A stretch of 64,000 nucleotides of DNA from an uncultured virus (IMG/VR IMGVR_UViG_3300035130_000204). Its lineage: Duplodnaviria; Heunggongvirae; Uroviricota; Caudoviricetes. The notes under the pieces were generated by a model, which was not told where the DNA came from, made no database searches, and was given only the letters and a program-made list of their open reading frames with translations. The stretch is from the IMG/VR virus record IMGVR_UViG_3300035130_000204. One strand, written 5' to 3'. Position numbers and translations under genes: made by a program. This document shows positions 15,055 to 52,373 of this stretch, in pieces; within the stretch, counting starts at the first letter, position 1; each line of letters begins with the position of its first letter.

Positions 15055-15321
15055 ATGGAGCGCAATCCTGTTTGGTTGGTCCCTGCGCTTCTTGCAGCAT
15101 CGGCAATAGGAGGAGCGATCGGCTGGAGCGCCCTGACGTCAGGTCCTTCCGAGCCAACGGCCGAGCAGAGGGAAGTCGCGCAGAGAGCTGCAGTGACTGA
15201 GCGACTACGAGCCCAGATGGCGCTAGATACCTTTCAGCCCGTCCTGATGGCCGCCATCCCGCTGATGGTTGCCGGTGGAGCCTTCTTCATGTGGAAGGCG
15301 CACCAGGAGACTTCGGCGTGA
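15055..15321 (+). CDS. Small two-TM protein
   Basis: MERNP start; two hydrophobic segments. Confidence 0.65.
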   Translation: MERNPVWLVPALLAASAIGGAIGWSALTSGPSEPTAEQREVAQRAAVTERLRAQMALDTFQPVLMAAIPLMVAGGAFFMWKAHQETSA

Positions 15322-15746
15322 GTTCTCAGTACGCTCGTGGCAAGGCGTGGACGAACGTGCGGCCAGGATCGCTCGGTGCGCACAATGTCGTTTCGGCATG
15401 GAATTGGAACACGGGCCAGTACGACTACTACCGAATTCCCAAGCCGCTAGCGCCGCGATACGGTGACGAGGTCAAGCCGCCGTCTCCTGGAGTGTCCTTG
15501 GCTGGACTGGGCGAAGACCCTGATCAATCGGCACGTCCTATTCCATTCGGTGCACGGAAGGTGGGAAGCGGATCGCAGGCGCTTGGCGACATCGTGTCGC
15601 CCGATAGCGTGTCGGCGGGACCGGCGGCTTGGGTCGGCGTCGCAGTGGCCATCGCCATACCCGTGGGACTGCTTTTTGTTACGGCAAACCTCAAGGACTG
15701 GCTCGGTTTCGAAGAAAAATCACAGCGAGTCGAAGAAGCACTTTAG
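15318..15746 (+). CDS. Membrane-anchored protein
   Basis: GTG start after AGGAGA; SAWNWNTGQYDYY, LAGLGED; C-terminal TM. Confidence 0.65.
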   Translation: MSSQYARGKAWTNVRPGSLGAHNVVSAWNWNTGQYDYYRIPKPLAPRYGDEVKPPSPGVSLAGLGEDPDQSARPIPFGARKVGSGSQALGDIVSPDSVSAGPAAWVGVAVAIAIPVGLLFVTANLKDWLGFEEKSQRVEEAL

Positions 15747-15755
15747 GAGAATCCG

Positions 15756-16499
15756 ATGTCGAAACGCCGAATCGACTTGACGAAGATCCTCGAGGACCCA
15801 GAACAGCGCAAAGATCTGATGGTCCGGACCATCGTCGCTACTCAGGCGCGTGAGGGCATCGACGTGTCTTTCGAGGATGCCGAGGAGGCCTATGAGCGCA
15901 TCCAGGAGGAGCTGCGGCGCAAGGCTGCTATGCGCGAGAACCCTGGATTTGTCCGCAACGACGAGCAAAGCCTTGCTGGCGCTGTGCGGACCTACGAGCG
16001 CTTCCATGACGGCGAAGCTGGATTGGGTGCCTATCCGTTCAATGGGCGCAAAGAAGGCATCTTCCCGCTACCTGCCTATGTGCAGTGGCCCTGGGGCGTC
16101 GAGGTATTCGGTCAGGCTGTGCGAACGCTCTACGAGAGCGACAAGTGGCACCCGAAGGGCGACACGACGCAGTACTATCACGATCACGATGGCGGCGTGA
16201 CGTTCTACGTGCCTGCGGGGGAAGGCGAAGGTGAAGTTGTCCCGTTCAAGCACGAGTGGCCCGAGGAGGTTGCTCTTCTTGGTTCGTGCATCGGCTTCGT
16301 GGTCAAGGACGGCGCTGGAGAGCTTGCCGAGGGGATTATGAGCGGCAAGAACATCCTGGTGGCCTCGCCGGACGGTTGGGTCAATCCCAAGAAGCCGAAT
16401 CGTGTGTTCCTGGCCATCATCAACCTCGATGGCGGTGGTGTCGAGGGCATCATCGATGGTGGCAAGCTGCGAATTACTTCGCACGGGATCGAGGGTTAG
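15756..16499 (+). CDS. Hypothetical protein, two modules joined at RENP
   Basis: RBS AGGAG; helical N-terminal part, then YERFH..LYESDKW..YYHDH; ends ITSHGIEG. Confidence 0.75.
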   Translation: MSKRRIDLTKILEDPEQRKDLMVRTIVATQAREGIDVSFEDAEEAYERIQEELRRKAAMRENPGFVRNDEQSLAGAVRTYERFHDGEAGLGAYPFNGRKEGIFPLPAYVQWPWGVEVFGQAVRTLYESDKWHPKGDTTQYYHDHDGGVTFYVPAGEGEGEVVPFKHEWPEEVALLGSCIGFVVKDGAGELAEGIMSGKNILVASPDGWVNPKKPNRVFLAIINLDGGGVEGIIDGGKLRITSHGIEG

Positions 16500-16501
16500 C
16501 A

Positions 16502-16825
16502 ATGCGTGTCTTTCCGAAGTACCTCGAGAAGGCAGCGGCGCTGATGTGGAGGATGAACGAAGACTACTGGCGTTTGCGAAAAAGCGCCGATAATGCCATC
16601 GATCGCGGCGATTACGCTGCGGCAATCACTGACGCCGAAGACGCAGTCGAGATAAGCGCGCTGTACATGCACATTGGCTTCGCAATCCGTCCTCGTGACG
16701 AACGAGAGGGTCTGCGTGAGTTCAATCGCGAGACCGGTGAGTGGTATCAGGGCATAGAGCAATCCTATCGTGAGGCGCGCAGGCCTCCTGCGAACTTGTT
16801 CGCGAAACTGTTCGGAAGGGGCTGA
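16502..16825 (+). CDS. Hypothetical helical protein
   Basis: Fills the gap between neighbours; RBS GAGG. Confidence 0.6.
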   Translation: MRVFPKYLEKAAALMWRMNEDYWRLRKSADNAIDRGDYAAAITDAEDAVEISALYMHIGFAIRPRDEREGLREFNRETGEWYQGIEQSYREARRPPANLFAKLFGRG

Positions 16826-16826
16826 C

Positions 16827-17378
16827 ATGTACGAGTACCAACATGCTTTCGGGGCGCTCGGAACGAACGGAAAGACCAGTGCGTCGTTGCCACCAGAACG
16901 TCCATCGATTCCTAGCGGTCCCGTGACGAGTGAGCAGATCGACGAGTTCGTGCAGGAGCATCGACAGTACGAGCACGCCGTCGAGCAGCAGCGTGAATCG
17001 GAGCGCCAGGAAGAACAGGCGCGGTGGATGCTCAACGCTGCCCAACGTGCTGCGTACTTTGAGCAGAACCCAGCTGCTCTCGCTGCTGCCCAGTTTGGCG
17101 GCTGTCTTTTCGGCTCGCTGATTTGGGGTGCCATCATCGGCGCCATAGCGTCCCCCAAGGGTGAGCGTGGTGGTGGTGCCAAGTGGGGCATCCTGGGTGC
17201 AATGGCAACATGCCCGTTGGTTCCTCTGTGGACTCGCATCGGATACGTCGGCACTGTCCTCAACGTCGTGCTTGCCATTGGTGCGCCCATCGCAGCTGCT
17301 CGCTACCGCCTCGAGCGCGAGCGCGAGCGCGAGCGAGCGGCACTGCCTGGTCGTGTCGCAGAAGGAGGCCGTCCGTGA
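16827..17378 (+). CDS. Multi-TM protein (MYEY-leader family)
   Basis: MYEYQHAFGALG leader; three hydrophobic segments. Confidence 0.7.
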   Translation: MYEYQHAFGALGTNGKTSASLPPERPSIPSGPVTSEQIDEFVQEHRQYEHAVEQQRESERQEEQARWMLNAAQRAAYFEQNPAALAAAQFGGCLFGSLIWGAIIGAIASPKGERGGGAKWGILGAMATCPLVPLWTRIGYVGTVLNVVLAIGAPIAAARYRLERERERERAALPGRVAEGGRP

Positions 17379-17836: not shown

Positions 17837-20638
17837 ATGGCAAAAGGCTTCACCATCAATCGACCGAAGGCGCGGCGCAATCCAGAGCGCCTCACCCTGG
17901 TCAACCCTCGTCCTCGCGCAACTTCAGGGTGGTTCTCGACCAGCAGGTCGTCGTCGACCTCGTCTCCGGCCGAAAACCCCAAGCGCAAGGGCCAGAAAAA
18001 GCGCGTGACCCGACTGGCGAAGCCAGTTGGTGAAAAAGCGAAATCGGCTGGAAAGAAGCGCTCGACAAAGAAGTCGAGCACTCGAGCTTCGCGCTCTGGC
18101 GCGAAGAAGACGCAGCGGCAACGGCGCCAGCCCCGCACTGCCGCAGGGAAGAAGAAGACAGTGGCCAAGAAGACCGTGAGGTACGGCCGGGCGGTTTCGA
18201 CCCGCAAGAAGGCCGCGCCGAAGCGTAAGCGCAACGCTGCGCCGAAGCGGAACGCCTCCACCAAGAAGGCCCCTCGGGGCAAGGTCTGGCGCAAGGGCTA
18301 CGTGACCTCGACAGGCAAGCGCGTCAAGGGTGCCTGGGTCAAGAAGCCGAAGCGCAACCCCTTCGATGCCCAGGGTCGCTACTACACGGCGACCGTCGGC
18401 ACCGGCAAGGGCAAGCGGAAGGCGCAGACGATCCCCACCAAGAAGCAGGTGGAGGCGGAGGCCGAGCGCCGCAAGCGCAGCCGTGCGGCCAAGAAGGCAG
18501 CGGCGACTCGTGCTGCCAAGGCTGGCAAGAAGGCCGCTCCGAAGCGCAAGCCCGCCAAGAAGGCGCCGAAGAAGAAGAGGACCGCTGCCAAGAGGAGGCC
18601 CGCCGTGAAGCGTGCTCGATCCAAGACCCCGCGGTACTACCGGAAGAGTTCCGGTGCACCCAAGGCCGGGATGACCTGGCGGAAGGGCTACACCCGCAAG
18701 GACGGCACGCGCGTGTCGGGCATGTGGGTCAAGAAGGGCGGGACGAAGAAGCGCAAGAAGGCCGCTGCGAAGCGGAAGACGACCTACAAGCGCAAGCCTC
18801 GCGTGAGCGCCGGCCGCGGTCGGACCAAGAAGGGCAAGATCACCGTTCGTAGGAAGAAGACCTCCTACATGAGCGGGGGTCGCGCGGGACGCTACCGCGT
18901 GCGCACCAAGGCCAAGCGCTACGGCAAGCGGAAGAGCTACCTCCGCAGCTACCCGAAGCGGCGCCGGGTGCAGGCCAAGAAGAAGACCTACAAGCGGCGC
19001 TACCCGAAGAAGTACGTTCGGCGTTCGCGCGGCGGGAAGGTTTGGGTCAAGGGCTACACGCGCTCGGACGGCGTGAAGGTCAAGGGCCACTGGATGCGCA
19101 AGCCCAAGCGTGGTCGCTACGCGATCACGGGCTCCGGCAAGGCGCGCAAGATCGCAGCCAACCCTGGTCGGAAGCGCAAGCGCAACATGGGTCGCAAGAA
19201 GAATCCGTACAAGCGCACGGGCTACAAGGGCGGCAAGATCCGGGTCAAGGGCTACTCCTACAAGCACCCGCGTACCGGCAAGATCGTGCGCGTCAAGGGC
19301 CACAGCCGCAAGCAGTGGTACCCGAAGCGGTACCCGCGTCGCGGCAAGGGCTCCAAGTGGCTCAAGCAGCGCGACAGCTACCGCCATGGCCTCATGAGCA
19401 AGTACGAGGCCAAGCGCTTCGGCTTCGCCGCCAACCCCGGCGCGCTCGCGATGCTGCCCACGAAAGACCAGTTCATGGCAGTGGGCAAGGCTGCTGGCGT
19501 CGGAGCCATCGGCTTTGCTGGGTCAGTTGCCATCGGCAGGATGTTCGGCCGAATCGGCTTCATCGATCGCACCTTCGGCAGCTGGTCACCGGTGGTCGGC
19601 AACGTTCTCGGAGGTCTCGGCATGTGGATGGCAGCCAACGCCATCGACAATCCGCGGCTCAACGAGATGAAGCCGTTCCTGGTGGTCGGTGCTGGTGTCG
19701 CCGCTGCTGTCAACCTGGCACTGAACGTCATCGCTCGAGGCTGGGTGCCGCAGGGCTACGCCGCATGGTTCATGCCGGGCGCTGGGGCAGTCGAGGCGGC
19801 TCCGGCGGCAGCTGTGGCTCCCGACAGCCCGGCTGCTGGCCTCGGTCAGATCGATGTCTACGAGGCAGCTCTCGACGGCTTCGGTGACATCGAGACCGAC
19901 CTGGAGCGCGAGCTGGAGCGCATGAGCGGCGATGACGGCATCTTCGGCGACCAGGGCGTCTTCGGCGAGTACCTCGAGACCCCCATGGGCGCAATGGTCG
20001 AGGAGGCCTTTGCAGGCGGCGGAAGCGGCGGCGTCGGCGAGTACCTCGAGACCCCGATGGGCGAGTACCTCGAGACCCCCATGGGCGCGATGGTCGAGGA
20101 GGCCTACGCGGGCATGAACGAGTACCTCGAGACCCCGATGGGTGAGTACCTCGAGACCCCCATGGGCGCGATGGTCGAGGAGGCCTACGCGGGTATGGGC
20201 GCGCAGGTCGAGGCGGCCTACGCGGGCCTCGGTCAGGCCAGCGGCAACGGCAACGGGTGGGCAGCCTTCGAGCAGTCCATTCAGGCCAACCCGCTGATGC
20301 CAGGCTTCCGGTCCGCTGTTCAGAGCCTCGTGCGCAAGCGTATCGCCGCGGGTCAACCCCTCGACGACGCGTTCTACGCGAAGCTCGGCCGCGCTTCGGC
20401 GCAGCTGGCCAAGCAGAAGTTCCAGCAGCGCGTGCAGCAGGTCCAGGGGCGACCCACCGACCTGCCGGTCGAGCGTTGGAAGGCACCGCTGCTTCGCACC
20501 TCGGCGCCGACGTACAAGAAGAACATCGGCGATCCGAGCATGACCCCGGGCTGGCCGGAGCGCATCCCGGCGGCCGGACCTCAGGCCGGTGAAGGCATCT
20601 TCTTCGGCACGGGGGACAAGGACGAGGGCGTCCTGTAG
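17837..20638 (+). CDS. Tripartite core-like protein: Lys/Arg-rich DNA-binding region, TM segments, acidic repeat region
   Basis: About 530 N-terminal aa extremely K/R-rich with W[RV]KGYxxxxGxxVxGxW repeats; hydrophobic helices; EYLETPMG repeats; very strong G/C-ending codon bias. Confidence 0.8.
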   Translation: MAKGFTINRPKARRNPERLTLVNPRPRATSGWFSTSRSSSTSSPAENPKRKGQKKRVTRLAKPVGEKAKSAGKKRSTKKSSTRASRSGAKKTQRQRRQPRTAAGKKKTVAKKTVRYGRAVSTRKKAAPKRKRNAAPKRNASTKKAPRGKVWRKGYVTSTGKRVKGAWVKKPKRNPFDAQGRYYTATVGTGKGKRKAQTIPTKKQVEAEAERRKRSRAAKKAAATRAAKAGKKAAPKRKPAKKAPKKKRTAAKRRPAVKRARSKTPRYYRKSSGAPKAGMTWRKGYTRKDGTRVSGMWVKKGGTKKRKKAAAKRKTTYKRKPRVSAGRGRTKKGKITVRRKKTSYMSGGRAGRYRVRTKAKRYGKRKSYLRSYPKRRRVQAKKKTYKRRYPKKYVRRSRGGKVWVKGYTRSDGVKVKGHWMRKPKRGRYAITGSGKARKIAANPGRKRKRNMGRKKNPYKRTGYKGGKIRVKGYSYKHPRTGKIVRVKGHSRKQWYPKRYPRRGKGSKWLKQRDSYRHGLMSKYEAKRFGFAANPGALAMLPTKDQFMAVGKAAGVGAIGFAGSVAIGRMFGRIGFIDRTFGSWSPVVGNVLGGLGMWMAANAIDNPRLNEMKPFLVVGAGVAAAVNLALNVIARGWVPQGYAAWFMPGAGAVEAAPAAAVAPDSPAAGLGQIDVYEAALDGFGDIETDLERELERMSGDDGIFGDQGVFGEYLETPMGAMVEEAFAGGGSGGVGEYLETPMGEYLETPMGAMVEEAYAGMNEYLETPMGEYLETPMGAMVEEAYAGMGAQVEAAYAGLGQASGNGNGWAAFEQSIQANPLMPGFRSAVQSLVRKRIAAGQPLDDAFYAKLGRASAQLAKQKFQQRVQQVQGRPTDLPVERWKAPLLRTSAPTYKKNIGDPSMTPGWPERIPAAGPQAGEGIFFGTGDKDEGVL
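19967..20233 (+). repeat. In-frame coding repeats EYLETPMG x5 and [AM/AQ]VE[EA]A[FY]AG x4
   Basis: GAGTACCTCGAGACCCC[CG]ATGGG repeated five times. Confidence 0.9.
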
Positions 20639-20808
20639 CTCATCAACCTGTCGCGGGGCTAGAGGGACGCCTCGAAGAGCGGTTTTCCGGACCGCCTGCC
20701 CCGCGGCATAAACAAATTCCGGGAGTGCTCGTTCCGGAGCGGGCGTAGGGCGTAGCGAAGGGGAGACCACCCCTGGCCGAGAGGCCGAATCACTGGAAGG
20801 AGATAGTC

Positions 20809-21456
20809 ATGCCCGCAATCGTCGGCGTCATCGAGCGCCTCCACCAGCCTCTGTACGACACCCTCTGCCGTGGCGTCGCCACCGCGACCGTCAACATCGG
20901 TCCCGGCGGCCAGCCGGTCGGCACCCAGACGCGCCTGTTCTCGGGCGCCAACCTGGGCAACCGCGCCTGGACGAACATGAAGGTCGCCGGTCAGCTCGTC
21001 GCCGACCGTACCTTCAAGATCAAGGCGCTCCGCGTGCTCACGCACTTCCGTGCGGGTCTTCAGACCGCGGCGCTGGCCGGTCCTCCGGCCTACTTCGTCC
21101 ACCGGCTGTACCTGCAGTGCCAGTCGCAGCTGTTCTGGACGCTGAACGTCGGTGACAAGCCGCAGTTCGTGGCCGGGACGCACTACATCCCGATGGCCGC
21201 TGGCATCTACGGCGACGTGGGTGGCGACACGAGCCTCGTGCTCATCAACAACGGCGTGCCGAGCCACGCCGCGCTGCTCCGCCTCGGCCGGCCCATCAGC
21301 GTGCCGCCGCGCCAGGGCATCGAGGTCCTCGCCGAGATCTTCCAAATGAACAACACCGGCGACCACAGCCTCGACGCGGCCCTGAACGCGAACGACGACA
21401 TCGCCAAGGACGTCAAGTACTTCCTGGACGGCCTGGCGACGCGAGAGGTGCAGTGA
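20809..21456 (+). CDS. Candidate major capsid protein (beta-rich, single jelly-roll-like)
   Basis: 215 aa, alternating beta-strand pattern, extreme codon bias, RBS AAGGAG, follows the core-like gene and precedes a strong hairpin; fold is inferred, not shown. Confidence 0.55.
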   Translation: MPAIVGVIERLHQPLYDTLCRGVATATVNIGPGGQPVGTQTRLFSGANLGNRAWTNMKVAGQLVADRTFKIKALRVLTHFRAGLQTAALAGPPAYFVHRLYLQCQSQLFWTLNVGDKPQFVAGTHYIPMAAGIYGDVGGDTSLVLINNGVPSHAALLRLGRPISVPPRQGIEVLAEIFQMNNTGDHSLDAALNANDDIAKDVKYFLDGLATREVQ

Positions 21457-21515
21457 TTTCAGGCACTTAGGTGCCAAGTCACCGCATCTCTTGTCCCGTC
21501 TGTGACGGTTCGAGG

Positions 21516-21548
21516 GCCCCCGAGGCGCCATCGTGGCGCCTCGGGGGC
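21516..21548 (+). terminator. Strong 15-bp GC hairpin after the capsid candidate (terminator or mRNA stabiliser)
   Basis: GCCCCCGAGGCGCCA-TCG-TGGCGCCTCGGGGGC; no U-tract. Confidence 0.55.
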
Positions 21549-21662
21549 TGCTCATAGCCTGGCCGGCACTACACCTAGCTCGAGCTGGCCAGAGACGGCG
21601 TGCAAGGCGTCGTACCCCGCGGCCTACTGCGGGAGATAACGAAAGGTGATGAGGAGCTGACA

Positions 21663-22430
21663 ATGCCAGGAAAGCAGATTCGCATTCATCCGGCTGTCGC
21701 GGCTGAGTTTCGCAAGATCACGGACGCCATGGCCCTGCAGAAGCAGGAACTGGACCGTCTGGCCGGCAGGCTGGCGCAGGAAAGCCAGGCTCGAGAGGCC
21801 CTCGAAAAGGAAGAGGTCCACATCGACGACATGCCGGGCAAGCAGCTGCCCTTCAAGTTCCAGATCAACATCCCGTTGCCTGGTGGCACTGAGTCGCCGC
21901 AGACCGGCACCGTCACCGTCTCGCGCGACGGACCCTTTGTCGCGCGGCGGCTATACGCCTCGCTGTACATCAGCGACGCGCCTTTGCTCGAGGTTCCAGC
22001 GCCTCCTGTTGGCGGCATCACATGGGACTTCACTCACATGATCGGGCGCTACGCGCCGCGGTCGTCGCGCGAGTGCTGCGACTGGTTCACGTGGGCCAGG
22101 GCGCTCACCGACTTCGCCGTCGACAGCGTTGTCTTGCCGCCTATCGACTTCGAGTACAGCTACGACGACGGCGGCTCGGAGCGCAACAGGCAGGACAAGC
22201 CGATCAGCGGCGACATCCTCGCGATGAAGGACGAGGATGGCTACTTCATGAACAACGAGATGTTCGCGGCTGGTACGACCATCAGCTTCACGGTTCACCC
22301 GCTGCGAGCGACTCCGATCATCACCCTGGCGAACGAGGATGTTCCGCCTGTGACCGACGATGGACCGATCGATCTCGTTCTCCAGATCACCTTCGATGGC
22401 TTCAAGGTGCTGCAGCCCCTGGAGATGTAA
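21663..22430 (+). CDS. Beta-rich protein, candidate second or minor capsid protein
   Basis: RBS GAGGAG; N-terminal helix then beta strands; C-terminal LQITFDGFKV echoes VKYFLDG of 20809. Confidence 0.5.
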   Translation: MPGKQIRIHPAVAAEFRKITDAMALQKQELDRLAGRLAQESQAREALEKEEVHIDDMPGKQLPFKFQINIPLPGGTESPQTGTVTVSRDGPFVARRLYASLYISDAPLLEVPAPPVGGITWDFTHMIGRYAPRSSRECCDWFTWARALTDFAVDSVVLPPIDFEYSYDDGGSERNRQDKPISGDILAMKDEDGYFMNNEMFAAGTTISFTVHPLRATPIITLANEDVPPVTDDGPIDLVLQITFDGFKVLQPLEM

Positions 22431-22432
22431 AG

Positions 22433-23146
22433 ATGACGAAGTCTCGCCGCGGTCCGAAGACCAAGTCGAAGATGGGTACGGCGTTGCGCAGAGGCAGCGT
22501 CGACCCGCGGCGGCGAGGGTCTTCCAAGCACTTGATGACGCCGAAATCTACTGTCCTCGAGCCATCGAAGGATTACCTCGATCCTGAGCAGCTACGTGCA
22601 AGGCCGCTGCTTGGTAGTCCTTTGGACAGCAGGCGCGTGCGTACTGTCAAGGGTTTCTACGAAGCTCTTCCAGACAACCGCGTGCTGTATCTCGACATCA
22701 TGCGCGAGATCCCTTACGACGCTTCTCTGAACAGAAAAATCGTTATCTTCAGCGAGGAAGTTCCTAGCGCACGGATTTACATCATCGACAACATCGAGTT
22801 CTACGCCTGGCCAACCGGCGGGGGCGCTCCGCTGGCTGCAGGGATCATCGAAGGTGCGGTGCAGTTCAGCTTCGCCATCGGAAAAACCGCACCAGTGGAC
22901 ATCAACACGACACGGGTACAGACGGGGTTGCCTGCAACCAACGGGGGTTATTTCCCGTTCGTCAACGAACGAGTGGGCGCCGAGCAGGTAACTTTTTCGG
23001 TGTTCGCCAAGACAGGGCAGCCCGTCGAGGCTTTCTACGTAAACCGTGTAGCTTCTCCAGTTTCGCTCAGGACAGTAGCAGCAAGAGTTCAGGGGTGGAT
23101 GGCTGACGTGTCGATTCTCGAGGAGATTTTGGAGCAGCAGCGATGA
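22433..23146 (+). CDS. Beta-rich protein with basic N-terminus, candidate minor capsid or vertex protein
   Basis: Beta-strand pattern (EVPSARIYIIDNIEFY..VQFSFAI..VAARVQGW). Confidence 0.45.
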   Translation: MTKSRRGPKTKSKMGTALRRGSVDPRRRGSSKHLMTPKSTVLEPSKDYLDPEQLRARPLLGSPLDSRRVRTVKGFYEALPDNRVLYLDIMREIPYDASLNRKIVIFSEEVPSARIYIIDNIEFYAWPTGGGAPLAAGIIEGAVQFSFAIGKTAPVDINTTRVQTGLPATNGGYFPFVNERVGAEQVTFSVFAKTGQPVEAFYVNRVASPVSLRTVAARVQGWMADVSILEEILEQQR

Positions 23147-24012
23147 CGGACAACGCCCAGAACGGACAGTCAGCTTCAGCGACGCCGCAGCCAGCCGATC
23201 CAGGTCAGCCGGCCGCTTCACCTGCACAGATCGCTGCGGCGCAACGCGTACTCAAGAAGGTGCGCAAGCAGATCGCGAGGTTTCACAACGTCCGCAGGCG
23301 CAACAACGAGGTCGCAGCAGGTCTTCGTCAGGGCGCCGTGATGCCTGATCAGGCGCGGCAGATCATCTCGATGAATCGCGACCCGGAAAAGGAGCGCGAA
23401 GCCGTCGACAAGCTGCGGCAGCTGATTGGCATCGTTCTAGGTCGCGAACCTACTTCAGAGGAGATGAGGCAGGGGATTCCGGAGGGGTTCGAAAACAGTC
23501 TGGGTATGGGTCTCTGGCCTCAGGTTGTGGCTGTCGGCGTCGCCTCCTCCGCTGTGGGTGTCTACTCCGTCTTCAACTACCTCACCACACGTGAAGAGAC
23601 CATACAGCTGCAGACAGCTACGCCGACCGAGCGCTTGCTCAACGCAGCAGCCAACAACGTGTGGGCTATCGCTGCAGCTGGCGCTGTGGGTGTGGGCGCT
23701 CTGATGTACTACCGCGGCAAGCAAGCCGGCGAGGAAGAGGCTAAGGAGGAAAGCTCCTTTGCCAAACTCTCCGCAAAGCTCACAGGTGGCAAGGGTGGTC
23801 CGGTCGAAAATCCATCTGCTGGTCTCAAGGTGTGGATGGACGAGCTGACGCCGGATCAAAAGCGGAAGCTCGCCAAGATCCTCGCGGATGAGCCTGAAGA
23901 AGAAGCCGAGGAAGAAGAGATCGAGGAGGAGGAGTACGACGGCTCAGAGGGTGAGGCGACGCCTGAGGAAGAAGCCGAAGACGACGCTGCGGCAGACGAG
24001 GAAGAGGGTTAG
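23143..24012 (+). CDS. Two-TM protein with acidic tail
   Basis: SLGMG before TM1, VENP before the acidic tail. Confidence 0.7.
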   Translation: MTDNAQNGQSASATPQPADPGQPAASPAQIAAAQRVLKKVRKQIARFHNVRRRNNEVAAGLRQGAVMPDQARQIISMNRDPEKEREAVDKLRQLIGIVLGREPTSEEMRQGIPEGFENSLGMGLWPQVVAVGVASSAVGVYSVFNYLTTREETIQLQTATPTERLLNAAANNVWAIAAAGAVGVGALMYYRGKQAGEEEAKEESSFAKLSAKLTGGKGGPVENPSAGLKVWMDELTPDQKRKLAKILADEPEEEAEEEEIEEEEYDGSEGEATPEEEAEDDAAADEEEG

Positions 24013-24025
24013 CGCCGAGCACTAG

Positions 24026-24155
24026 CGGCGAGGCGTTGATGAGGGCGCCCTGGGTCATGACGAGCATGCGCGCAAACAAGGGGTGGCAGGGGAAGCCACT
24101 CGCGTGCCGAGTGCTTATGGGGCCGGCCCCTGGCGCCCTCATCAACGCTTCGCCG
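24026..24155. ncRNA. Structured intergenic element (long inverted repeat enclosing inner stems)
   Basis: 24-bp arms 24026-24049 and 24132-24155 with one G-U pair; inner GTGGC/GCCAC and GCATGCGCG/CGCGTGC stems. Confidence 0.45.
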
Positions 24156-24176
24156 AGGATCACGGAGTAGAACACC

Positions 24177-24986
24177 ATGGCAAAAAAGAAGACACTGTGG
24201 ACGCCTCCTCGAGACCCGAAGACCGGAGCCTTCAAGCCACGCGAAGAGTGGACAAAGAGTGAGGAGCGCGCCTATCGCAAAGCGCAGCGAGAAGGGCGCA
24301 TAGCGGCGGCCAAGCAGGCAAAGAAGATGCCGCGCGGTCCACATGGGCGCTTTGTCTCTCCAACGGGCAGGACCAAGCCAAGGAAGGCTGCATCGTCGGC
24401 TGCACAGCCAGTGTACGTCGAGCAGGAGTGCCCACCGTGTGTCCCTGAGTTCCCAGGGTTGGAGTCGCGAGTGGCTCAGCCGCTGGCTACGACGTCTGCT
24501 CAGGTCGCGCAGATTCAGGCGGACATAGCTGAGATGAAGGCGCGACTGAGGCTTGCACCGGCGCAGCCTCAGGCGAACCCGATCGAGACGCTGACCATCG
24601 TCAACGGTGTTGGCGAACGCGAACAGACGCAGATGACGAAGCTGTGGGATTCGATCAAGGACAACCCCCTGCTCGCCGCCGCTGCGGTTGGCGCTGTGGT
24701 CCTGATCGGTTACCTGATGTACCGCTCGTGGCGGCGTTCGCAGGAGCAAACTGGCGTTGCAGAGCCAGAACCGCAGCCAGTCACAGGTGGTCTGATGCAA
24801 CCACCTGGTGGCGCCCTTCCGCCTACGACCGTTCGTCCTGCGGACGTGATTCCAAAGCATCCTACGTACAGGCTGGTTCAACCAACGATCGGCGACACAC
24901 TCATGAGGCCGAACGTCAACGTCGAGCAGCAAGAGCTTCCGGGGCTCGAGGGCGCCGATGGCGACGGCGAGGGCATCTTCACGTGA
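24177..24986 (+). CDS. Basic N-terminus, central TM protein
   Basis: RDPKTGAF and RGPHGRFVS basic hairpin motifs; TM; ends DGDGEGIFT. Confidence 0.7.
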   Translation: MAKKKTLWTPPRDPKTGAFKPREEWTKSEERAYRKAQREGRIAAAKQAKKMPRGPHGRFVSPTGRTKPRKAASSAAQPVYVEQECPPCVPEFPGLESRVAQPLATTSAQVAQIQADIAEMKARLRLAPAQPQANPIETLTIVNGVGEREQTQMTKLWDSIKDNPLLAAAAVGAVVLIGYLMYRSWRRSQEQTGVAEPEPQPVTGGLMQPPGGALPPTTVRPADVIPKHPTYRLVQPTIGDTLMRPNVNVEQQELPGLEGADGDGEGIFT

Positions 24987-25840
24987 TCCGTACGGCTGAC
25001 AGACGTCCTGAGGAGAACGGAATCGGAGACGTCTTCGGCCGAGCGGTCGAGTTTGCAAGGGCCAACCCTCTTCTGACGGTTGCTGGAGTCAGCGCAGTCG
25101 CGCTCGGTGGTGTCGCCATCGGAGCGCTGCTACTGCAGCGTGGCGACAACGTCATCATCTACCTCGATCAGGGCGAGGGCTCGGGCGAGTTTCGCACGGT
25201 AGCCAACCGAATGGCTGGCGTTATCAACGCCAGCATCTATCCGGCACACAACGGCCAGCAGGTGCTCGATGCGCTGAGTCGCCACCGTCGCATCAAGACG
25301 CTGATCTTCGCCGGCCACGGGACGACGACCCAGTTTCTCCGGCCTGGCCGGGGTGGAATCCGTGTTGGTACGGACGCACTGCCCACCTGGATCTCTACGG
25401 GTACGCTCGCGCGCGTACTTTCCTTTAAGATGGTTCCTGGTGGCGTCATCAGCTGGGCTGGGTGCAGCGCAGCGTCGAACCCCGGCGAATCCAGTTGGAG
25501 CTACAGGTCCTACGGTCCCGGAGGCGAGCGCAGCTTCATAGCTCGAGTGCGCGACAGCATGGCTAGGTTGCCCTGGACGGCATGGGGCATCGAGCACCGC
25601 GGGCACTCGTCACCGGGCCACACCACGGCGAATCCTGCGGCCAGAGCTTGCGACGTTGCTTTGTGGGAGATTGGTCAGCCCTGCGATTCATTCATGGACG
25701 AAGAGTGGGGAGAGGGCTCATACGAGAGCCAGCACCGACAGTGGGCAGCCGCCTTCGAAGGCCAGGCTGCTGAGGCATGGATGACGGGAGCTGACGTCGA
25801 TGTGCCGCGTGGTGCAGCTGTCGAGGTGAGGTACGCGTGA
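24983..25840 (+). CDS. Membrane-anchored caspase-fold-like (C80 / DUF4347-like) putative cysteine peptidase
   Basis: N-terminal TM; LIFAGHG (His) and ISWAGCSAA (Cys) dyad pattern; GTG start overlaps the previous stop. Confidence 0.5.
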   Translation: MIRTADRRPEENGIGDVFGRAVEFARANPLLTVAGVSAVALGGVAIGALLLQRGDNVIIYLDQGEGSGEFRTVANRMAGVINASIYPAHNGQQVLDALSRHRRIKTLIFAGHGTTTQFLRPGRGGIRVGTDALPTWISTGTLARVLSFKMVPGGVISWAGCSAASNPGESSWSYRSYGPGGERSFIARVRDSMARLPWTAWGIEHRGHSSPGHTTANPAARACDVALWEIGQPCDSFMDEEWGEGSYESQHRQWAAAFEGQAAEAWMTGADVDVPRGAAVEVRYA

Positions 25841-27027
25841 TGGACCGCAATCCCGTCGAGGCCTTGGCCATCATAAATCCTGAGGACGAGGGCCTGTTCT
25901 CTCGAGCGATGTACTACCTCATGCGCAAGGCAGAGGGCGCGGCCGAATACGCACGTGAAGAGCCGTTCAAGGCAGTCATGGTTGTAGCTGCGGGGGTCTC
26001 TGCAAGCTACGGCGTGTATCGCCTGTTCAACTACCCGTTCCCGCTATGGGGTGCGACGCTTGAGCTGAACGGAAATCGCTACCACATGAGCAACACCGAT
26101 CGGTTGTGGATGGGTCGGATGGTTGTAGGTGAGGCTGGTGAGTCGGGATGGGATAACCCGTCGACGGCGGAAGCGAAGCGCAGGGCTGGTGCTGCAGTTC
26201 TGTGGTCCGTGGCAACTCGTCACATGACCAAGCCGGCCTTTCGCGACTGGACGCTGACGCGCACAATGCGTGCGTTCTCACAGCCGATCAACCCTATCTG
26301 GGCAAGCCCGTTGGGCGAGGGTTGCTTGCGGAGGCCGAGCGCTTGTACACCGTCAAGACTGGAGCGCAGGTTCCGTATCACCCATCTGCCATGGTACGCA
26401 CTGCCTGAAGGCGTGCGGCAACTGGTGGACGAATTTTTCCGCGGGCGTTTGGAAAACCCGATTCCAGGATACAACAACTTCGCCGCTTCAGGCGCGATCA
26501 GCTCGTCGGCACTGGCTCAGTCGACTTTGCCGCCAACGACCATCGGTGGAAACACCTTCGTGAGAGATCGTGGATCGACGCCTGGCGATGTCAGCATGGC
26601 CGGTCACGACGATTCAATGGTGGTCGATGTAGAAAGTCTCGCGCTGGGCGATTACCACCCGTTGCAGGTCGGAAGCGCTGTCACTTTGGCTGCTTTGACT
26701 GTCGGCGGTTTGTGGGTTTTCAACGCGGCGTACAAGGAAAAAGAAGAGCGTTTGCGTGCTCGGCACAAAGCCAATCCTCGAAACAAACGCTACTACGTGA
26801 AGATCAAGGGCGAGCGTGTGACTTACGGTCCCTACGCGCTCAAGTCGGCGAAGAGCTTCGCCAGGATCGGCTCGCAACACGGCAAGGACAGGTTCGTCCG
26901 ACGTGATCGCCCAGGTGGTTCCAGAGTGCGCCACTACAGCGACGGCAAGCGTGTGTGGCCGGTGCGCGAGTCTCAGCTGCGTGGATTGCTTTCTTCCGAG
27001 CAGCCGCGCCGTCTACAATCAGCTTGA
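25840..27027 (+). CDS. Membrane protein with SleB / Hydrolase_2-like cell-wall hydrolase domain
   Basis: LWMGRMVVGEAG...AVLWSVATR...FSQ pattern flanked by two TMs; basic C-terminal module after KANP. Confidence 0.55.
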   Translation: MDRNPVEALAIINPEDEGLFSRAMYYLMRKAEGAAEYAREEPFKAVMVVAAGVSASYGVYRLFNYPFPLWGATLELNGNRYHMSNTDRLWMGRMVVGEAGESGWDNPSTAEAKRRAGAAVLWSVATRHMTKPAFRDWTLTRTMRAFSQPINPIWASPLGEGCLRRPSACTPSRLERRFRITHLPWYALPEGVRQLVDEFFRGRLENPIPGYNNFAASGAISSSALAQSTLPPTTIGGNTFVRDRGSTPGDVSMAGHDDSMVVDVESLALGDYHPLQVGSAVTLAALTVGGLWVFNAAYKEKEERLRARHKANPRNKRYYVKIKGERVTYGPYALKSAKSFARIGSQHGKDRFVRRDRPGGSRVRHYSDGKRVWPVRESQLRGLLSSEQPRRLQSA

Positions 27028-27039
27028 GGGAGGAATACG

Positions 27040-27606
27040 ATGGCAACGAGCCGCAAGAAGACCGCCAAGAAGAAGACGACTGCGAAGCGTCGGCCGGCGG
27101 CCAAGAAAAAGACAACCAAGAAGAACGCCGCCAAGAAGGTCCTGAAGTGGGGCAAAGGCGTCGTCCATCCTGTGACAAAGCGTCCTTGCGGCGGAAGAGC
27201 TATGTCGCAGCGCGACCAAAAGCTCTTCACACGCATGGGTAAGCGTCGCGCTGGCGTGACGCCGACCAAGGTGCGTGAGGCCTATGGGCTGAAGAAGCCG
27301 GCTCGCCAACCTGCCAAGAAGAAGGCGGTCGCAAAACGTCCAGCTCGCAAGGCTGCGACCAAGCGCAAGCCTGCGAGGAAGGCCGCTCCGAAGAAGCGCA
27401 CGATGGCCGCCAAGAAGAAGGCGCCCAAGGGCTACCGTGAGAAGAAGGTCAGTCCTGGCCGGTCCAGGTTCAAGTACGTCATCTTCGATGCAAGCGGGCG
27501 TGACCACTATGGCTGCAACAAGCTGACGGACGCACGCCGAAAGCTCAAGGAGCTGAAGGCGGAGAAACCCAAGGCAAAGCTGCAGATCTACGAAATGAAG
27601 GGCTAG
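27040..27606 (+). CDS. Histone H1-like basic protein
   Basis: RBS GGGAGG; K/A/R/P-rich PAKKK and PARKAA repeats. Confidence 0.75.
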   Translation: MATSRKKTAKKKTTAKRRPAAKKKTTKKNAAKKVLKWGKGVVHPVTKRPCGGRAMSQRDQKLFTRMGKRRAGVTPTKVREAYGLKKPARQPAKKKAVAKRPARKAATKRKPARKAAPKKRTMAAKKKAPKGYREKKVSPGRSRFKYVIFDASGRDHYGCNKLTDARRKLKELKAEKPKAKLQIYEMKG

Positions 27607-27610
27607 CACC

Positions 27611-28120: not shown

Positions 28121-28132
28121 GAGGTTCTCGCA

Positions 28133-28633: not shown

Positions 28634-29037
28634 GCCCCTGGATGCAGGCAGGGATCGGCATAGGCGTCGGCTACTTGCTTTACACGTACGTGCTCAAGGG
28701 TCGCGTGATCGTTCCCAACGGGTCTGTCCTGTCAGGTGACATCGAACACAACGGATACAAACGTTCGGGGCGCAAGGCCTGGAAGAGTCGGACCGCCATG
28801 CGCGTCGAAGAGCGTGAGGCCATGCACGCTCGCGCTCCCGGGTGCTTTCTGAAACCGAAAGAGATGAAGTACCCCGTGTGCTCCAAGGGTGGCTCCAAGC
28901 CGACCTGTGAAGGCCTGCTTGCCGCACGCCGCCGTGCGATCCTGAACAGGGACAGGAAGGTGAGACGCAAGGCCGAGTCCATGGCGCTGACGATGGGCTG
29001 CGGCTGGGCTCTTCGGAGCGAAAAGCTGGTAGTTTGA
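28630..29037 (+). CDS. N-terminal TM plus basic Cys-containing domain
   Basis: ATG overlaps the previous stop; CFLKP..KYPVC..CEGLLAARRRA. Confidence 0.65.
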   Translation: MSPWMQAGIGIGVGYLLYTYVLKGRVIVPNGSVLSGDIEHNGYKRSGRKAWKSRTAMRVEEREAMHARAPGCFLKPKEMKYPVCSKGGSKPTCEGLLAARRRAILNRDRKVRRKAESMALTMGCGWALRSEKLVV

Positions 29038-49042: not shown

Positions 49043-49795
49043 GTGGGCGACTTCAACCCAGGCAGGCGTGTTCTATCCGAGGAACAGATACGTGAGATCA
49101 CCAAGGCCTACTTGAAGGGAATAGGACCTTCAGAGCTTGCACGGCGATACATCGTGTCAGAGAGAACCATCACGAGAGCACTTGAGAGGCAGGGGATCAA
49201 GCGCATGACTTCGAAGGAGCGTTCGGAGCTGGTCACAGCTCAATACGAGTCGCTCCTGAGAAAGTGGGTCGCAGAGGGAAGGACAAGAGAGGAGATAACC
49301 GAGCAGCTCGGCGTGTCAACCGGCATGCTTTCGAGGATGCTCAGGGATCTGGGCCTTCGCACAAGTGGTCGCGAAGTTCAGCTGCTCTCTGAAGAAGACC
49401 GCAAGCTAGTGGCCGAGCGCTACCTCGATGGCGAATCCACAAGGTCCCTGGCGAGGCAGTTCGATATCTCTCGCGAAACTATCCGAAAGTATCTCAGCGA
49501 TCAGGGAGTTCCGATGCGTCCAAGCATTAGAAAGAGTGCCCTGACACTCGAGATGAAGCAAGAGGCCGCCGAGGCTTACGAAGCTGGCATGACGCTGCAG
49601 CAGATTGCCGAGGTCTTTGGCGTAAGCTACACGACAATTCGGCGCGCCCTCAAGGAGCTTGGTGTCAGGAGCAGGCCGCCAGGGCACCGCCCACGGAAGA
49701 ACTCCAACTCCGACGCCCCCATTGGCCTCCTTGCCGCCGCGAGCCTCGCTGCCATAGCCATCGGCATCTGGGGCTGGGCGACGAGGATACGATGA
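49043..49795 (+). CDS. Four tandem HTH repeats plus C-terminal TM
   Basis: Repeats of Y..G.S...[LI]A..[FY]G[VI]S..T[IV]...L; C-terminal hydrophobic helix. Confidence 0.8.
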   Translation: MGDFNPGRRVLSEEQIREITKAYLKGIGPSELARRYIVSERTITRALERQGIKRMTSKERSELVTAQYESLLRKWVAEGRTREEITEQLGVSTGMLSRMLRDLGLRTSGREVQLLSEEDRKLVAERYLDGESTRSLARQFDISRETIRKYLSDQGVPMRPSIRKSALTLEMKQEAAEAYEAGMTLQQIAEVFGVSYTTIRRALKELGVRSRPPGHRPRKNSNSDAPIGLLAAASLAAIAIGIWGWATRIR

Positions 49796-51756
49796 GCGAC
49801 TTCCGCTACTGGGGCAACTGCACCAACTCCACGGCCGAGGACATCTGGGCCTTGCAGGAGTCTGCGCAGCGCGTCTCGTGGCGGACGTTCAAGAAGGCTG
49901 TGCCCGACGCGCGAGCGATGCTCGAGGAGATGGGCGCCGTCTGGCCCGAGACGACCAACAAGCAGATCGAGGACTCGTCGTTCTTTGCGTTCAACAAGGG
50001 CACCTTCATGGGTCGCCCGGCCTACTTCATCGACTGGGGTCGCATCGAGTGGATCTGGGTAGCTCCTGAGGAAAACCCTAGGCGTGTCACTCTTTCGAAA
50101 GAACAACAAGAAATCCTACTGGAGGCTTACAGATCTGGTTTGTCGTTGCGCTCCGTGGCGGAAATAGTTGGGACCTCCGCAAATACGGTACGCCGGTTCT
50201 TGAAGAGCAGTGGGGAGCCAGTCCGCCCTCCAAGTGTCGCTGCAAGTGTCGCTAGCCGACCCCGAAGGAAGTTGACCCCAGAGCAAGAGGAGCAGCTTGT
50301 TGAAAGCTACAGAGCAGGCTTAACAGCGGCTGCTGTGGGGGAGAGGTTTGGAGTTAGCGAAGTGACGGCTTGGAGCATATTGAAGCGTCGCGGCGCTAGC
50401 CGACCCCGAAGGAAGTTGACCCCAGAGCAAGAGGAGCAGCTTGTTGAAAGCTACAGAGCAGGCTTAACAGCAGCTGCTGTAGGGGAGAGATTTGGCATTA
50501 GCGAAGTGACGGCTTGGAGGATATTGAAGCGTCACGGCGTTAAAATGAGGCATAGAGGGGAGTACGAACGACCCGAATTACTGCTTGTTGCTGCCTACGA
50601 CTCAGGCATGTCGTTGCGAGCGATTGGTAGGGAGCTTGGCGTCTCTGCCGAGACGGTTCGTCGCTGGCTCAAGAAAGCTGGGGTGCCGATGCGTGTAGGC
50701 AGGAAGGAGCGGGTGCTTTTGCCAGGACAGGAACGAGCTGCAGCAGATGCCTACGAGTCTGGAGCCAGCATTGATAGCATTGCGGCGCGTTTTGGAGTTT
50801 CCAGCAACGCACTTCGCGCTGCCCTAATTAGGCAGGGAGTTGAGCGTCGCGAACCTAAAAGGGTCAGCTCTGCTCACGAGCATATCGATGAAGTGGTCGC
50901 TGCTTACGACGCAGGTATGTCAATTCGAGCGATTGGTAAGGAGATTGGTGTTTCTCACGAGACGGTTCGTCGTTGGCTGAAGGATGCGGGCGTAGAGCGT
51001 CGAGCAGGCCCTGGGCGCGATCGATCCTTTCGTCGCTGGCTAAATGAAGCAGGCGAAGAGCGTCGAGTAGTCTCTGGACGCGATCGTTCTTTATGGGACA
51101 CGGCGGAGGAGAACCCATCTCGCTCTGTCATCCGCGGCGCCCTTGGCATCGCGAGCATCACGGCGGTACTGGTAGGGCTTGGCTTCGCGATTCGCGCAGC
51201 GAGGATGAGGAAACGACGCGACCCTGGACCGGGGCAGACTGCGGCTGTGGGCAACAGCATCACTGCTAATCAAAACGGGTTCGTGTCGTTTCTTGATCGC
51301 TCGCTGCCTCATAGATCCTTTGCGAACATGGGCGTCGTGGGAGAGGGAGCTGCAGCCATCGCGCGCCGGCTCGAGCGCAATGTTGTTGGTCGTGGGTTCG
51401 ATGAGGTCATCATCGAGGCCGGCATCAACGACATTGGGCGTCGTGACGCGCTCGAGTACATCCCCAGGCAGCTCGCTGCGATGGTTCGCACGGCAAAAGC
51501 GGCTGGGCTCAAGGTCGTGCTCACCACCCTGCCTCCGTGGCAAGACCAGGCCACGCGTATCATGGCCATCAACCAGCGCATCAAGAATGAAGGCAGGACC
51601 TGGGGGGCGGATGTCATTGTGGACATTCACAGGCCGTTGGCTGACTGGCGTGGCGGTTTGCGAAGCGATCTGATCGGCGACCGCATGGGGCTCCATCCGA
51701 CGCGAGCAGGACAGGAGCTGATCGGCAGGGCTATCCTAGAGTCGGCGTACAGCTGA
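49792..51756 (+). CDS. Multidomain protein: N-domain, six HTH repeats, TM, SGNH/GDSL hydrolase
   Basis: HTH repeats between two EENP motifs; SGNH blocks VGNSIT, GVVG, AGIND, GLHP. Confidence 0.8.
   Translation: MSDFRYWGNCTNSTAEDIWALQESAQRVSWRTFKKAVPDARAMLEEMGAVWPETTNKQIEDSSFFAFNKGTFMGRPAYFIDWGRIEWIWVAPEENPRRVTLSKEQQEILLEAYRSGLSLRSVAEIVGTSANTVRRFLKSSGEPVRPPSVAASVASRPRRKLTPEQEEQLVESYRAGLTAAAVGERFGVSEVTAWSILKRRGASRPRRKLTPEQEEQLVESYRAGLTAAAVGERFGISEVTAWRILKRHGVKMRHRGEYERPELLLVAAYDSGMSLRAIGRELGVSAETVRRWLKKAGVPMRVGRKERVLLPGQERAAADAYESGASIDSIAARFGVSSNALRAALIRQGVERREPKRVSSAHEHIDEVVAAYDAGMSIRAIGKEIGVSHETVRRWLKDAGVERRAGPGRDRSFRRWLNEAGEERRVVSGRDRSLWDTAEENPSRSVIRGALGIASITAVLVGLGFAIRAARMRKRRDPGPGQTAAVGNSITANQNGFVSFLDRSLPHRSFANMGVVGEGAAAIARRLERNVVGRGFDEVIIEAGINDIGRRDALEYIPRQLAAMVRTAKAAGLKVVLTTLPPWQDQATRIMAINQRIKNEGRTWGADVIVDIHRPLADWRGGLRSDLIGDRMGLHPTRAGQELIGRAILESAYS
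50251..50538 (+). repeat. 144-bp near-identical tandem duplication of one HTH unit
   Basis: Copies start at 50251 and 50395 (GCTAGCCGACCCCGAAGGAAGTTGACCCCAGAG...). Confidence 0.9.
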
Positions 51757-51764
51757 GGCAAGCC

Positions 51765-52373
51765 ATGGCAGAGTACGAAGAGGTCGGCGAGCACATTATT
51801 GTTGCGAATCCTGAGGACGGCGAGTGCTTTGCGGTCGAGTTCGCGGCTGATGAGCAGCCCATCGCGAATCCAGCGCCTCGCATCAAGACGTCGAAGCGCA
51901 AGCTCGAGGGGTTCCGCATCGAGGTCCCGCTCGGCGAGTTCGAGAGCTTCCGAGTGCGCTTGGCCCTTGTGCGCCCTGTAGACTACGACAAGAGCAAGAG
52001 CGAAATCGTCGCTGGCTCAAATGTGGTCTACAAGATTATGAAGACAACCGCAGGGCTCAGCGCTGAGTCCGTCTACGTCCTGCTGCTCAATGCGCGCAAT
52101 CGGCTTCTTGGAATCCACGAAATCTCTATGGGCGGGGTTACCAAGACGGTTGTCGAGCCAGTGCGCGTATTTCAGGCCGCGATGCTTTCCAATGCCTCGG
52201 CAATCGTGATGGTGCACAATCATCCGAGTGGCAGCCCGGAGCCAAGCTCTGAGGACGTAGCGCTTGCCAGACGGGTGCAGGACCTCGGCGAGCAGCTCGG
52301 CATCAAGATGCTCGACTTCGTGATCGTCGGAATCGGCGAGTACGTGTCTTTTGCCGACCGCGGACTTATCTGA
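51765..52373 (+). CDS. radC: RadC-like JAB-domain protein
   Basis: ESVYVLLLNARNRLL, VHNHPSGSPEPSSED, LDFVIVG, YVSF. Confidence 0.9.
   Translation: MAEYEEVGEHIIVANPEDGECFAVEFAADEQPIANPAPRIKTSKRKLEGFRIEVPLGEFESFRVRLALVRPVDYDKSKSEIVAGSNVVYKIMKTTAGLSAESVYVLLLNARNRLLGIHEISMGGVTKTVVEPVRVFQAAMLSNASAIVMVHNHPSGSPEPSSEDVALARRVQDLGEQLGIKMLDFVIVGIGEYVSFADRGLI

Follow-up and report, generated by a model that had tools for sequence, protein, structure and literature searches.

The dipeptide Asn-Pro (NP) is encoded far more often than expected in a 64,000-nucleotide stretch of DNA from an uncultured virus of the Caudoviricetes (IMG/VR record IMGVR_UViG_3300035130_000204), here called the window. Because it lies far above random and is kept in related genomes, NP is a selected feature. 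An earlier note on this DNA had seen NP recurring at N-termini and domain junctions and had proposed one tag, a cleavage site or packaging signal, by which enzymes and DNA-binding modules are appended as polyprotein segments and loaded into the particle. The reading that we favour, with a confidence slightly above even, is that NP is a protein-level structural motif of helix starts and tight turns and not one functional tag. The motif is most likely ordinary protein grammar, and the finding, read in this way, is thus modest in weight. The excess marks a clade of large viruses (contigs of about 150-290 kb) that is known from metagenomes only, has bacterial-looking genes and has nearly all of its proteins without a family.

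Among the 400 dipeptides NP ranked first by over-representation in the window when compared with 200 within-protein shuffles, so the comparison with shuffled proteins placed it above random, as the earlier note had anticipated. In a provisional set of 67 open reading frames (ORFs), the composition of the individual proteins predicts 26.0 NP, and 59 were counted. A length-greedy set of 81 ORFs gave 57 against 25.9 (z 6.6), and the 56 ORFs with a homologue in G001 gave 46 against 20.6 (z 5.8), G001 being an IMG/VR record of 182,770 bases that is syntenic with the entire window at 27-84% amino-acid identity. The reverse dipeptide PN was rarer than expected (10 against 21). As a bacterial control, the same ORF method was applied to 34 loci of at least 9000 bases, taken from 43 cellular loci matching the RadC-like protein of the window, and it yielded 277 NP against 227.8, or 1.22 times expectation; against this background the 61 NP of a curated set of 69 ORFs (26.7 expected) have a Poisson p of 5e-06. 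In G001, NP stands at 1.82 times expectation in the orthologues of window ORFs and at 1.23 and 0.97 times in the other two thirds of the genome. Bacterial loci at 60-70% G+C range from 0.83 to 1.27 times expectation. Rather than being genome-wide, the excess is confined to one genomic region and to particular classes of protein. By protein class the counts in the window are:

Proteins with a hydrophobic segment: NP 23, expected 6.7, ratio 3.42
Proteins with a hydrophobic segment, protein 17837 left out: NP 14, expected 5.4, ratio 2.59
Other orphan proteins: NP 27, expected 11.6, ratio 2.34
Enzymes with a Pfam family: NP 11, expected 6.8, ratio 1.61
Three capsid-candidate ORFs: NP 0, expected 1.5, ratio 0

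The Asn of NP is encoded by AAC 35 times and by AAT 24 times, and the Pro by CCT (18), CCG (17), CCC (14) and CCA (10). With every codon of Asn and of Pro in use, the excess arises at the protein level. Avoidance of glycosylation was rejected as its cause since N-{P}-[ST] follows 9-10% of the Asn outside NP, which equals the Ser plus Thr frequency, and avoidance of deamidation was rejected since NG, at 1.11 to 1.89 times expectation, is not depleted. Asn-Ser is below expectation in the window (0.51), in G001 (0.74) and in the metagenome relatives (0.63), and stands at 1.00 in the bacterial loci.

The gene block around ORF 20809, the best-conserved ORF of the block, recurs in 15 metagenome contigs at 76-84% identity and 51-65% G+C. 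The homologous ORFs of these loci hold 172 NP against 79.2 expected (2.17 times), and 127 against 65.5 (1.94 times) when the basic-protein family described below is left out, and the clade-wide excess is independent of G+C over the range that the loci span. Retention in related genomes was also borne out: NP is kept in 94 of 188 aligned cells of the family alignments against 27.1% for all dipeptides (fourth of 132), and G001 keeps 15 of 35 aligned NP against 26.6% for all dipeptides (p 0.035). The sites have only the two residues in common. The residue before Asn is Arg, Ala, Gly, Lys, Val or others, and Arg/Lys is about two-fold enriched at -2, -1 and +3 relative to Asn. Border sites ahead of membrane helices and helix-turn-helix (HTH) repeats have a fixed Pro, whereas their Asn gives way to Arg, His, Lys, Thr or Asp. 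Exchange of Asn and Asp is seen at residue 210 of the 15756 protein, at residue 264 of the 56513 protein and ahead of an SGNH domain. Several invariant NP fall within conserved enzyme-like domains, and NPE(D/E) contexts are frequent among the window sites.

One large basic protein and three of its NP sites were followed through its family:

17837..20638, plus strand: large basic protein of 933 amino acids, from sequence and counts
17903..17908, plus strand: NP of LVNPRPR, residue 23, kept in 8 of 8 aligned relatives
19202..19207, plus strand: NP of the RKKNPYKR island, residue 456, kept in 8 of 9 aligned relatives
19433..19438, plus strand: NP of FAANPGALAMLPT, residue 533, kept in 9 of 9 aligned relatives

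Residues 1-534 of this protein are Lys/Arg-rich (37% K+R) and are followed by hydrophobic segments and by an acidic C-terminal part with GEYLETPMG repeats and a (D/E)GIF-like tail at the end. NP is found at residues 15, 23, 47, 174, 442, 456, 533, 605 and 818. The earlier count was confirmed: Pro follows 7 of the basic region's 11 Asn, where 0.62 would be expected (binomial p 4.8e-07). Across 36 cluster representatives of the family, the window's own protein included, 126 of 313 Asn in the basic regions precede Pro against 16.7 expected, each representative having 2-8 NP in a basic region of 27-42% K+R. Of the 36, 32 have the RNPYKR-type island, NP[YHFP][KR]. The NP of FAANPGALAMLPT stands at the junction between the basic region and a conserved region adjoining the membrane segments, where an NP..L..LP anchor motif is found in 33 of the 36. 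The family may be a genome-condensing protein tethered to the membrane. Family-wide, Pro follows 40% of the Asn of this one basic region, a rule that gives a handle on a probable genome-to-membrane tether protein.

Members of the family (L060-L073, P0049-P0084) are 550-1170 amino acids long, with repeated KGY..DG..V.G.W hairpin-like units in the Lys/Arg-rich N-terminal region. On the C-terminal side they have hydrophobic segments, acidic GEYLETPMG or EEAYAG repeats and (D/E)GIF at the extreme end. A GEGIFT-type tail is common to the family and the C-terminus of ORF 24177.

NP is also placed with respect to hydrophobic segments. It occurs within 12 residues upstream of 6 of the 26 segments against 1.33 in the null, and none of 2000 permutations reached six. 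The first 25 residues of the proteins hold 13 NP against 5.5 expected (p 0.003) and the first 10 hold 5 against 2.2 (p 0.07), counts that are soft as start codons were chosen by the analyst. The placement proposed earlier thus held to a moderate degree. On the structural reading, helices and modules start at tight turns of this kind, and NP would for that reason land at module borders and near N-termini. The membrane, lytic and HTH proteins that carry these sites, together with the RadC-like protein, are:

15055..15321, plus strand: small two-helix membrane protein starting MERNPVWLVPALL; NP kept in 4 of 5 relatives
23143..24012, plus strand: membrane protein with the motif P-x-E-[KR]-N-P; NP kept in 9 of 9 aligned relatives
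24177..24986, plus strand: basic N-terminal protein with QANP at residue 134 and IKDNP at residue 163
25837..27027, plus strand: NP-helix-NP segment, membrane helix, SleB-like lytic domain and basic C-terminal domain
49043..49795, plus strand: array of about four HTH repeats and a C-terminal membrane helix (Pfam HTH_23, HTH_7 and others)
49792..51756, plus strand: array of about six HTH repeats, membrane helix and SGNH hydrolase
51765..52373, plus strand: RadC-like JAB protein with a leader of about 63 amino acids (Pfam RadC, residues 86-201)

The NP of the 15055 protein (MERNP, residues 4-5) stands immediately ahead of its first hydrophobic helix. The 23143 motif reads VENP in the window, at residue 223 (bases 23809-23814). 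Residue 163 of the 24177 protein directly precedes its membrane helix, and here all six relatives have Pro, as NP in two, RP in two and KP in two. The 25837 protein has six NP, at residues 5, 14, 107, 152, 207 and 313 counted from its GTG start. In its AlphaFold model, with a mean predicted local distance difference test score (pLDDT) of 72.9, helices start at P5, P107 and P152, hence at three of the six NP, and the starts at P107 and P152 lie in blocks with pLDDT of at least 93. Of the remaining three NP, one falls in a linker, one in a loop and one just past the end of a long helix. The best PDB match of this model in Foldseek was a SleB catalytic domain (E 0.03, probability 0.99), and QPINP and NPIG, which are among the best-conserved NP, fall inside the lytic domain. 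The occurrence of NP before hydrophobic helices and at the helix starts of the model fits what helix capping predicts.

The segment MDRNPVEALAIINP of the 25837 protein is kept in relatives, mostly internal to a longer fused protein. A separate ORF starts 2-3 residues before NPVE.L..INP in the window, in the relative L060 and in G001, and the motif is internal in L073 and others. By this comparison the N-terminal NP marks the start of a helical module that exists both by itself and in fusions. A helix cap at the start of the domain explains this, as would a processing site. Modules are shuffled between 24177-27027 of the window, 34267-37181 of G001 and the relatives L060-L074. Most relatives have one fusion of basic N-terminus, NP helix, membrane helix and SleB-like domain, which the window splits into 24177 and 25837; the latter gains a basic C-terminal domain that in G001 is part of a separate ORF of 194 amino acids.

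In the HTH proteins, GDFNPGRRV of 49043 forms the arm ahead of the first HTH. The two EENP of 49792 open the first HTH repeat (residue 95) and precede the membrane helix (residue 441). The first repeat of 49792 starts NPRRVTLSKEQ, and two paralogous repeats start RPRRKLTPEQ. Ahead of the SGNH domain the window reads RRDPGPG and the G001 orthologue RRNPGPG. The HTH array is absent from the G001 orthologue of the SGNH part. The RadC leader has IVANP at residue 15 and IANP at residue 35. The expectation that cellular RadC proteins lack this leader was upheld, as all 43 cellular loci match the window protein only from query residue 64 or later, and the leader is therefore specific to the virus. 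The sites on which the earlier note had drawn are present in the window: MERNP (15055), MDRNP..IINP (25837/25840), MKRNP (ATG at 44000), GDFNP (49043), SASNP (42259), IVANP and IANP (RadC, 51765), KDNP and EANP (31833), RENP (15756), VENP (23143), KANP (25837, residue 313), QNP and ANP (30169) and EENP twice (49792).

During the codon check AATCCTGAGGAY was found to recur in the DNA of the window. The palindrome TCCTNAGGA, with the extended form RTCCTSAGGAY, has 20 copies there against 0.71 expected:

25878..25886, strand (.): one of the 20 copies of TCCTNAGGA
14455, 25006, 25878, 31380, 32129, 35594, 48239, 50064, 51809, 57648 and 59554: sites of TCCTNAGGA, as examples

The palindrome is also frequent in G001 (40 copies against 3.7 expected) and in L074 (9 against 0.35); the other 14 relatives have 0-2 copies each, and 617 kb of bacterial loci have 6 against 5.2. 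Its positions differ between the window and G001 and are thus not conserved. Of the 14 copies within curated plus-strand genes, ten share the phase xxT CCT SAG GAx and encode x-Pro-Glu/Gln-Asp/Glu, and the central base on the coding strand is mostly G. Copies at 25878, 31380, 32129, 51809 and 53200 encode NPE or NPQ, found as IINPED (25837), YQNPED (30169), EANPEE (31833), VANPED (RadC) and RNPQD (52697). Being coded by the palindrome, four of the sites that had been listed as tags (IINP, QNP, EANP and IVANP) are by-products of this lineage-specific feature of the DNA. With the five palindrome-coded NP removed the excess is still about two-fold, and relatives without the palindrome have an equal excess. 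TCCTNAGGA is possibly a binding site of the membrane-anchored HTH-array proteins or a target of a G001 DNA methylase.

As a structural motif, NP would serve in three settings. At helix starts, mainly those of membrane helices and small helical modules, Asn would cap the helix and Pro would be its first residue, and many such sites would need Pro only. Amid basic residues, as in the Lys/Arg region of 17837, in the arms ahead of HTH repeats and in other basic tails, the pair would form Asx-Pro turns, the term for turns made by Asn or Asp with Pro. These turns may sit in the DNA minor groove like those of the SPKK or AT-hook type, with Asn probably picked for a turn without negative charge; N-P-x-(K/R) would then act as the S-P-K-K turns of sperm histones do. 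The pre-HTH arms may compare with the N-terminal arm of Hin-type HTH proteins and with the AT-hook. Within globular domains such as the SleB-like domain and a domain with conserved His and Cys, NP would make fixed turns. A small share, 5 of about 59 NP, would be a coding by-product of the over-represented palindrome.

Known motifs resemble these settings in part. A section of PMC3044275 states that regular helices favour Ser, Thr, Asn or Asp, then strongly Pro and then Glu at their first positions. NP is alike in standing at predicted helix starts of the 25837 protein and before hydrophobic helices, in the common NPE(D/E) context and in the exchange of Asn and Asp at some sites. At pre-membrane sites Asn exchanges with Arg, His or Lys and Pro is kept, and elsewhere Asn is invariant. 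It is unlike a general N-cap in that Asn-Pro alone is enriched, 2.2 times here against 1.22 times in bacterial loci. According to part of PMC9903204, SP(K/R)(K/R) repeats of basic histone tails bind the DNA minor groove. The 17837 protein, presumed to bind DNA, likewise has a Pro turn repeated among Lys and Arg, with a basic residue enriched at +3; it differs in having Asn for Ser or Thr, in residues after Pro that are not fixed as basic-basic and in being membrane-anchored. NPG in the 17837, 15756 and 49043 proteins recalls the Asn-Pro-Gly of 2A-type NPGP, which closes a D-x-E-x context. Ribosome skipping of that type was rejected, as window ORFs have no NPGP and G001 has two, of which the known window orthologue reads DPGP.

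Several points weigh against the structural reading. DP, SP and TP, Pro pairs equally able to cap a helix, are not enriched (0.96, 0.89 and 1.17 times expectation in window ORFs, with DP at 0.67 in relatives), and therefore capping alone does not account for Asn in particular. The background for NP is drawn from bacterial loci in general and not from membrane or virion proteins. The model that places NP at helix starts is of one protein, from a 10-row alignment, with its N-terminal 20 residues at pLDDT below 50. Near-invariant RNPYKR and anchor NP in probably disordered basic sequence exceed what generic turns need, and their constancy in fast-changing sequence would fit a recognised or reactive site.

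Such a site would be expected if a subset of NP were processing marks, which we hold to be improbable; the cut would be made by the Asn side chain acting on its own peptide bond, or by a protease that has escaped recognition. The candidates are the invariant islands of 17837, EKNP of 23143 and the N-terminal MxxNP of 15055 and 25837, where cutting would release DNA-condensing or membrane-active pieces from their anchors at assembly or entry. Asn-Pro autocleavage is familiar from the NPTH of FlhB/YscU. It is established chemistry also in the anti-sigma factor RsgI, as described in a paper that points as well to Asn42 of two outer-capsid proteins, reovirus mu1 and aquareovirus VP5 (PMC10328401). 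The sites here share with these a conserved, Asn-specific pair in virion- or membrane-associated proteins. In favour of processing, DP, SP and TP are not enriched, NP is invariant within fast-evolving basic sequence, the anchor NP lies exactly between the basic region and the membrane-segment part, and NPVE.L..INP, which follows an ORF start by 2-3 residues in the window, L060 and G001, is internal in the fusions of L073 and others. The invariant pair holds for a subset only (RNPYKR 32 of 36, anchor 33 of 36, VNPRPR 8 of 8, EKNP 9 of 9). Known Asn-Pro self-cleavage requires a folded pocket, whereas most sites here lie in basic sequence that is probably disordered. No likeness in sequence or fold to these self-cleaving domains was found, the one model searched, that of 25837, having SleB as its best match. 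Cutting by a protease meets the difficulty that most proteases reject Pro directly after the cut bond. Maturation proteases are known with sites such as L/I-x-E for T4 gp21 and S/A/G-x-E for the phiKZ type, and from adenovirus. NP resembles the sites of such proteases and capsid-targeting leaders as a short motif near N-termini and module borders in a structural gene block, and differs in that no fixed context precedes it, Pro would follow the cut bond and no protease family was recognised: none was found among the Pfam matches of 71 window ORFs (most of which have no family at all), among those of 110 G001 ORFs of at least 110 amino acids beyond position 64,000, or among the PHROG matches of 64 window ORFs. 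The sole protease-like candidate, the 24644 domain described below, is fused in distant relatives to cell-wall and effector modules. Still less probable is the specific form in which VNPRPR, RNPYKR, the junction NP and perhaps EKNP of 23143 are self-cleaving bonds of the mu1 type or sites of an unrecognised protease. If this were true, the virus would load a DNA-condensing polypeptide on a membrane anchor and then cut it loose, a maturation chemistry with no described precedent among bacterial viruses.

That a virion component recognises NP leaders as a packaging or sorting signal, and so loads RadC, the GHKL ATPase, the SGNH hydrolase and DNA-binding modules, is very unlikely. The RadC leader of about 63 amino acids with two ANP, which has no counterpart in the 43 cellular loci, and the 13 NP against 5.5 in the first 25 residues speak for it; against it, the leaders have only the dipeptide in common, and the NP at residue 15 of RadC, residue 99 of the GHKL protein and residue 404 of 30169 are coded by the palindrome. 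The RadC, GHKL and 30169 ORFs, like that of MKRNP (44000), have no counterpart in G001. The proposal of a single cleavage or packaging tag is thus not sustained, given the varying context, the fixing of Pro alone at border sites and the lack of a recognised maturation protease. The proposed polyprotein segments each have an ORF to themselves, with its own start and stop and often a 4-base overlap onto the preceding stop, and are therefore not parts of a polyprotein. An artefact of DNA or composition could stem from the palindrome, from preference for the oligonucleotide AAYCC or from the rarity of Asn at about 60% G+C. In its favour are the five NP coded by RTCCTSAGGAY, which has 20 copies against 0.71, and the use of AAT in 24 of 59 NP Asn against 95 of 459 Asn overall. 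We give it hardly any credence and regard it as largely refuted as the main cause, since the roughly two-fold excess persists without the five palindrome sites, all synonymous codons are in use, relatives with 0-2 palindromes show an equal excess, single NP sites are conserved as amino acids, and NP is at 0.83 to 1.27 times expectation in bacterial loci at 60-70% G+C and at 0.97 to 1.23 times in the remainder of G001.

The 24644 domain lies between the 24177 and 25837 genes:

25013..25840, plus strand: membrane-anchored domain with conserved His and Cys (the 24644 domain)

In the numbering of ORF 24644, its NP sites are residue 141 ahead of the membrane helix, SNPGES at 279 and TANP at 330. 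The site ahead of the membrane helix is NP in 15, HP in 14 and RP in 10 of 47 relatives; at SNPG 41 of 46 have NP, and at TANP 44 of 45. His102, in an invariant Gly-His, is found in 48 of 48 and Cys151 in 47 of 48, with a further conserved His. The protein atlas links the domain, at a score of 0.82, to clusters of which 13% carry Peptidase_C80 and 30% carry DUF4347, which are weak leads, and no PDB sequence matched it below E about 1. A profile search with the domain found 220 representative relatives, of which 150 were listed and 52 distant ones scanned. Among these 52, nine matched DUF4347 at scores short of the family cut-off; fusions to M15, GDSL, CHAP, subtilase, trypsin, eCIS-core, lysozyme or peptidoglycan-binding modules occur in others. 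As these fusions to cell-wall and effector modules point to cell-wall or effector functions, cell-wall attack appears likelier for the domain than a role in maturation, and it is only a weak candidate for a maturation protease. In the virus it adjoins the gene of the SleB-like enzyme. The domain is possibly an uncharacterised hydrolase.

The ORFs of the window are packed densely on the plus strand from about 4.5 kb on, at about 60% G+C, and most have neither a Pfam family (71 ORFs scanned) nor a PHROGs family (64 ORFs scanned). Recognised genes include:

686-2338, minus strand: AAA ATPase
ORF 14276: protein with a peptidoglycan-binding domain
ORF 31833: GHKL ATPase
Elsewhere in the window: several glycosyltransferases, one sulfotransferase and one pyruvyl-transferase/methyltransferase

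Megablast of window positions 20000-40000 against a phage collection gave no match, and the 25837 protein, when used to scan viral contigs, retrieved no relative. The other 110 kb of G001 encode a phage integrase, SSB, ParB, two DNA methylases, peptidase M23, thymidylate kinase and synthase, and HNH and PD-(D/E)XK nucleases. Terminase, portal, HK97-type capsid and prohead protease families were not recognised in these 110 kb. From the gene content of the window and G001, the element is a large uncultured virus with bacterial-type genes. One relative of another protein carries the source label Planctomycetota.

Three consecutive conserved ORFs at 20809-23146, of 215, about 255 and about 237 amino acids, have no NP. 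They are probably the main structural proteins, because third-position G+C is highest in the first (0.91), whose identity throughout the clade is 76-84%. For this capsid candidate, 20809, a profile of 16 sequences found no PDB sequence match at E up to 10, the AlphaFold model was unusable (mean pLDDT 31.9), and the protein atlas gave weak leads (scores 0.75-0.77) to the phage PRD1 P2 and P3 families. Besides these, a set of small paralogous proteins is encoded in 10576-17378 (ORFs 10576, 12870, 13932, 14276 and 16770) and again at 29723. They start with MYEY..S.GGLG, followed by a Cys-rich segment and a C-terminal membrane helix, and 14276 is the one among them with the peptidoglycan-binding domain.

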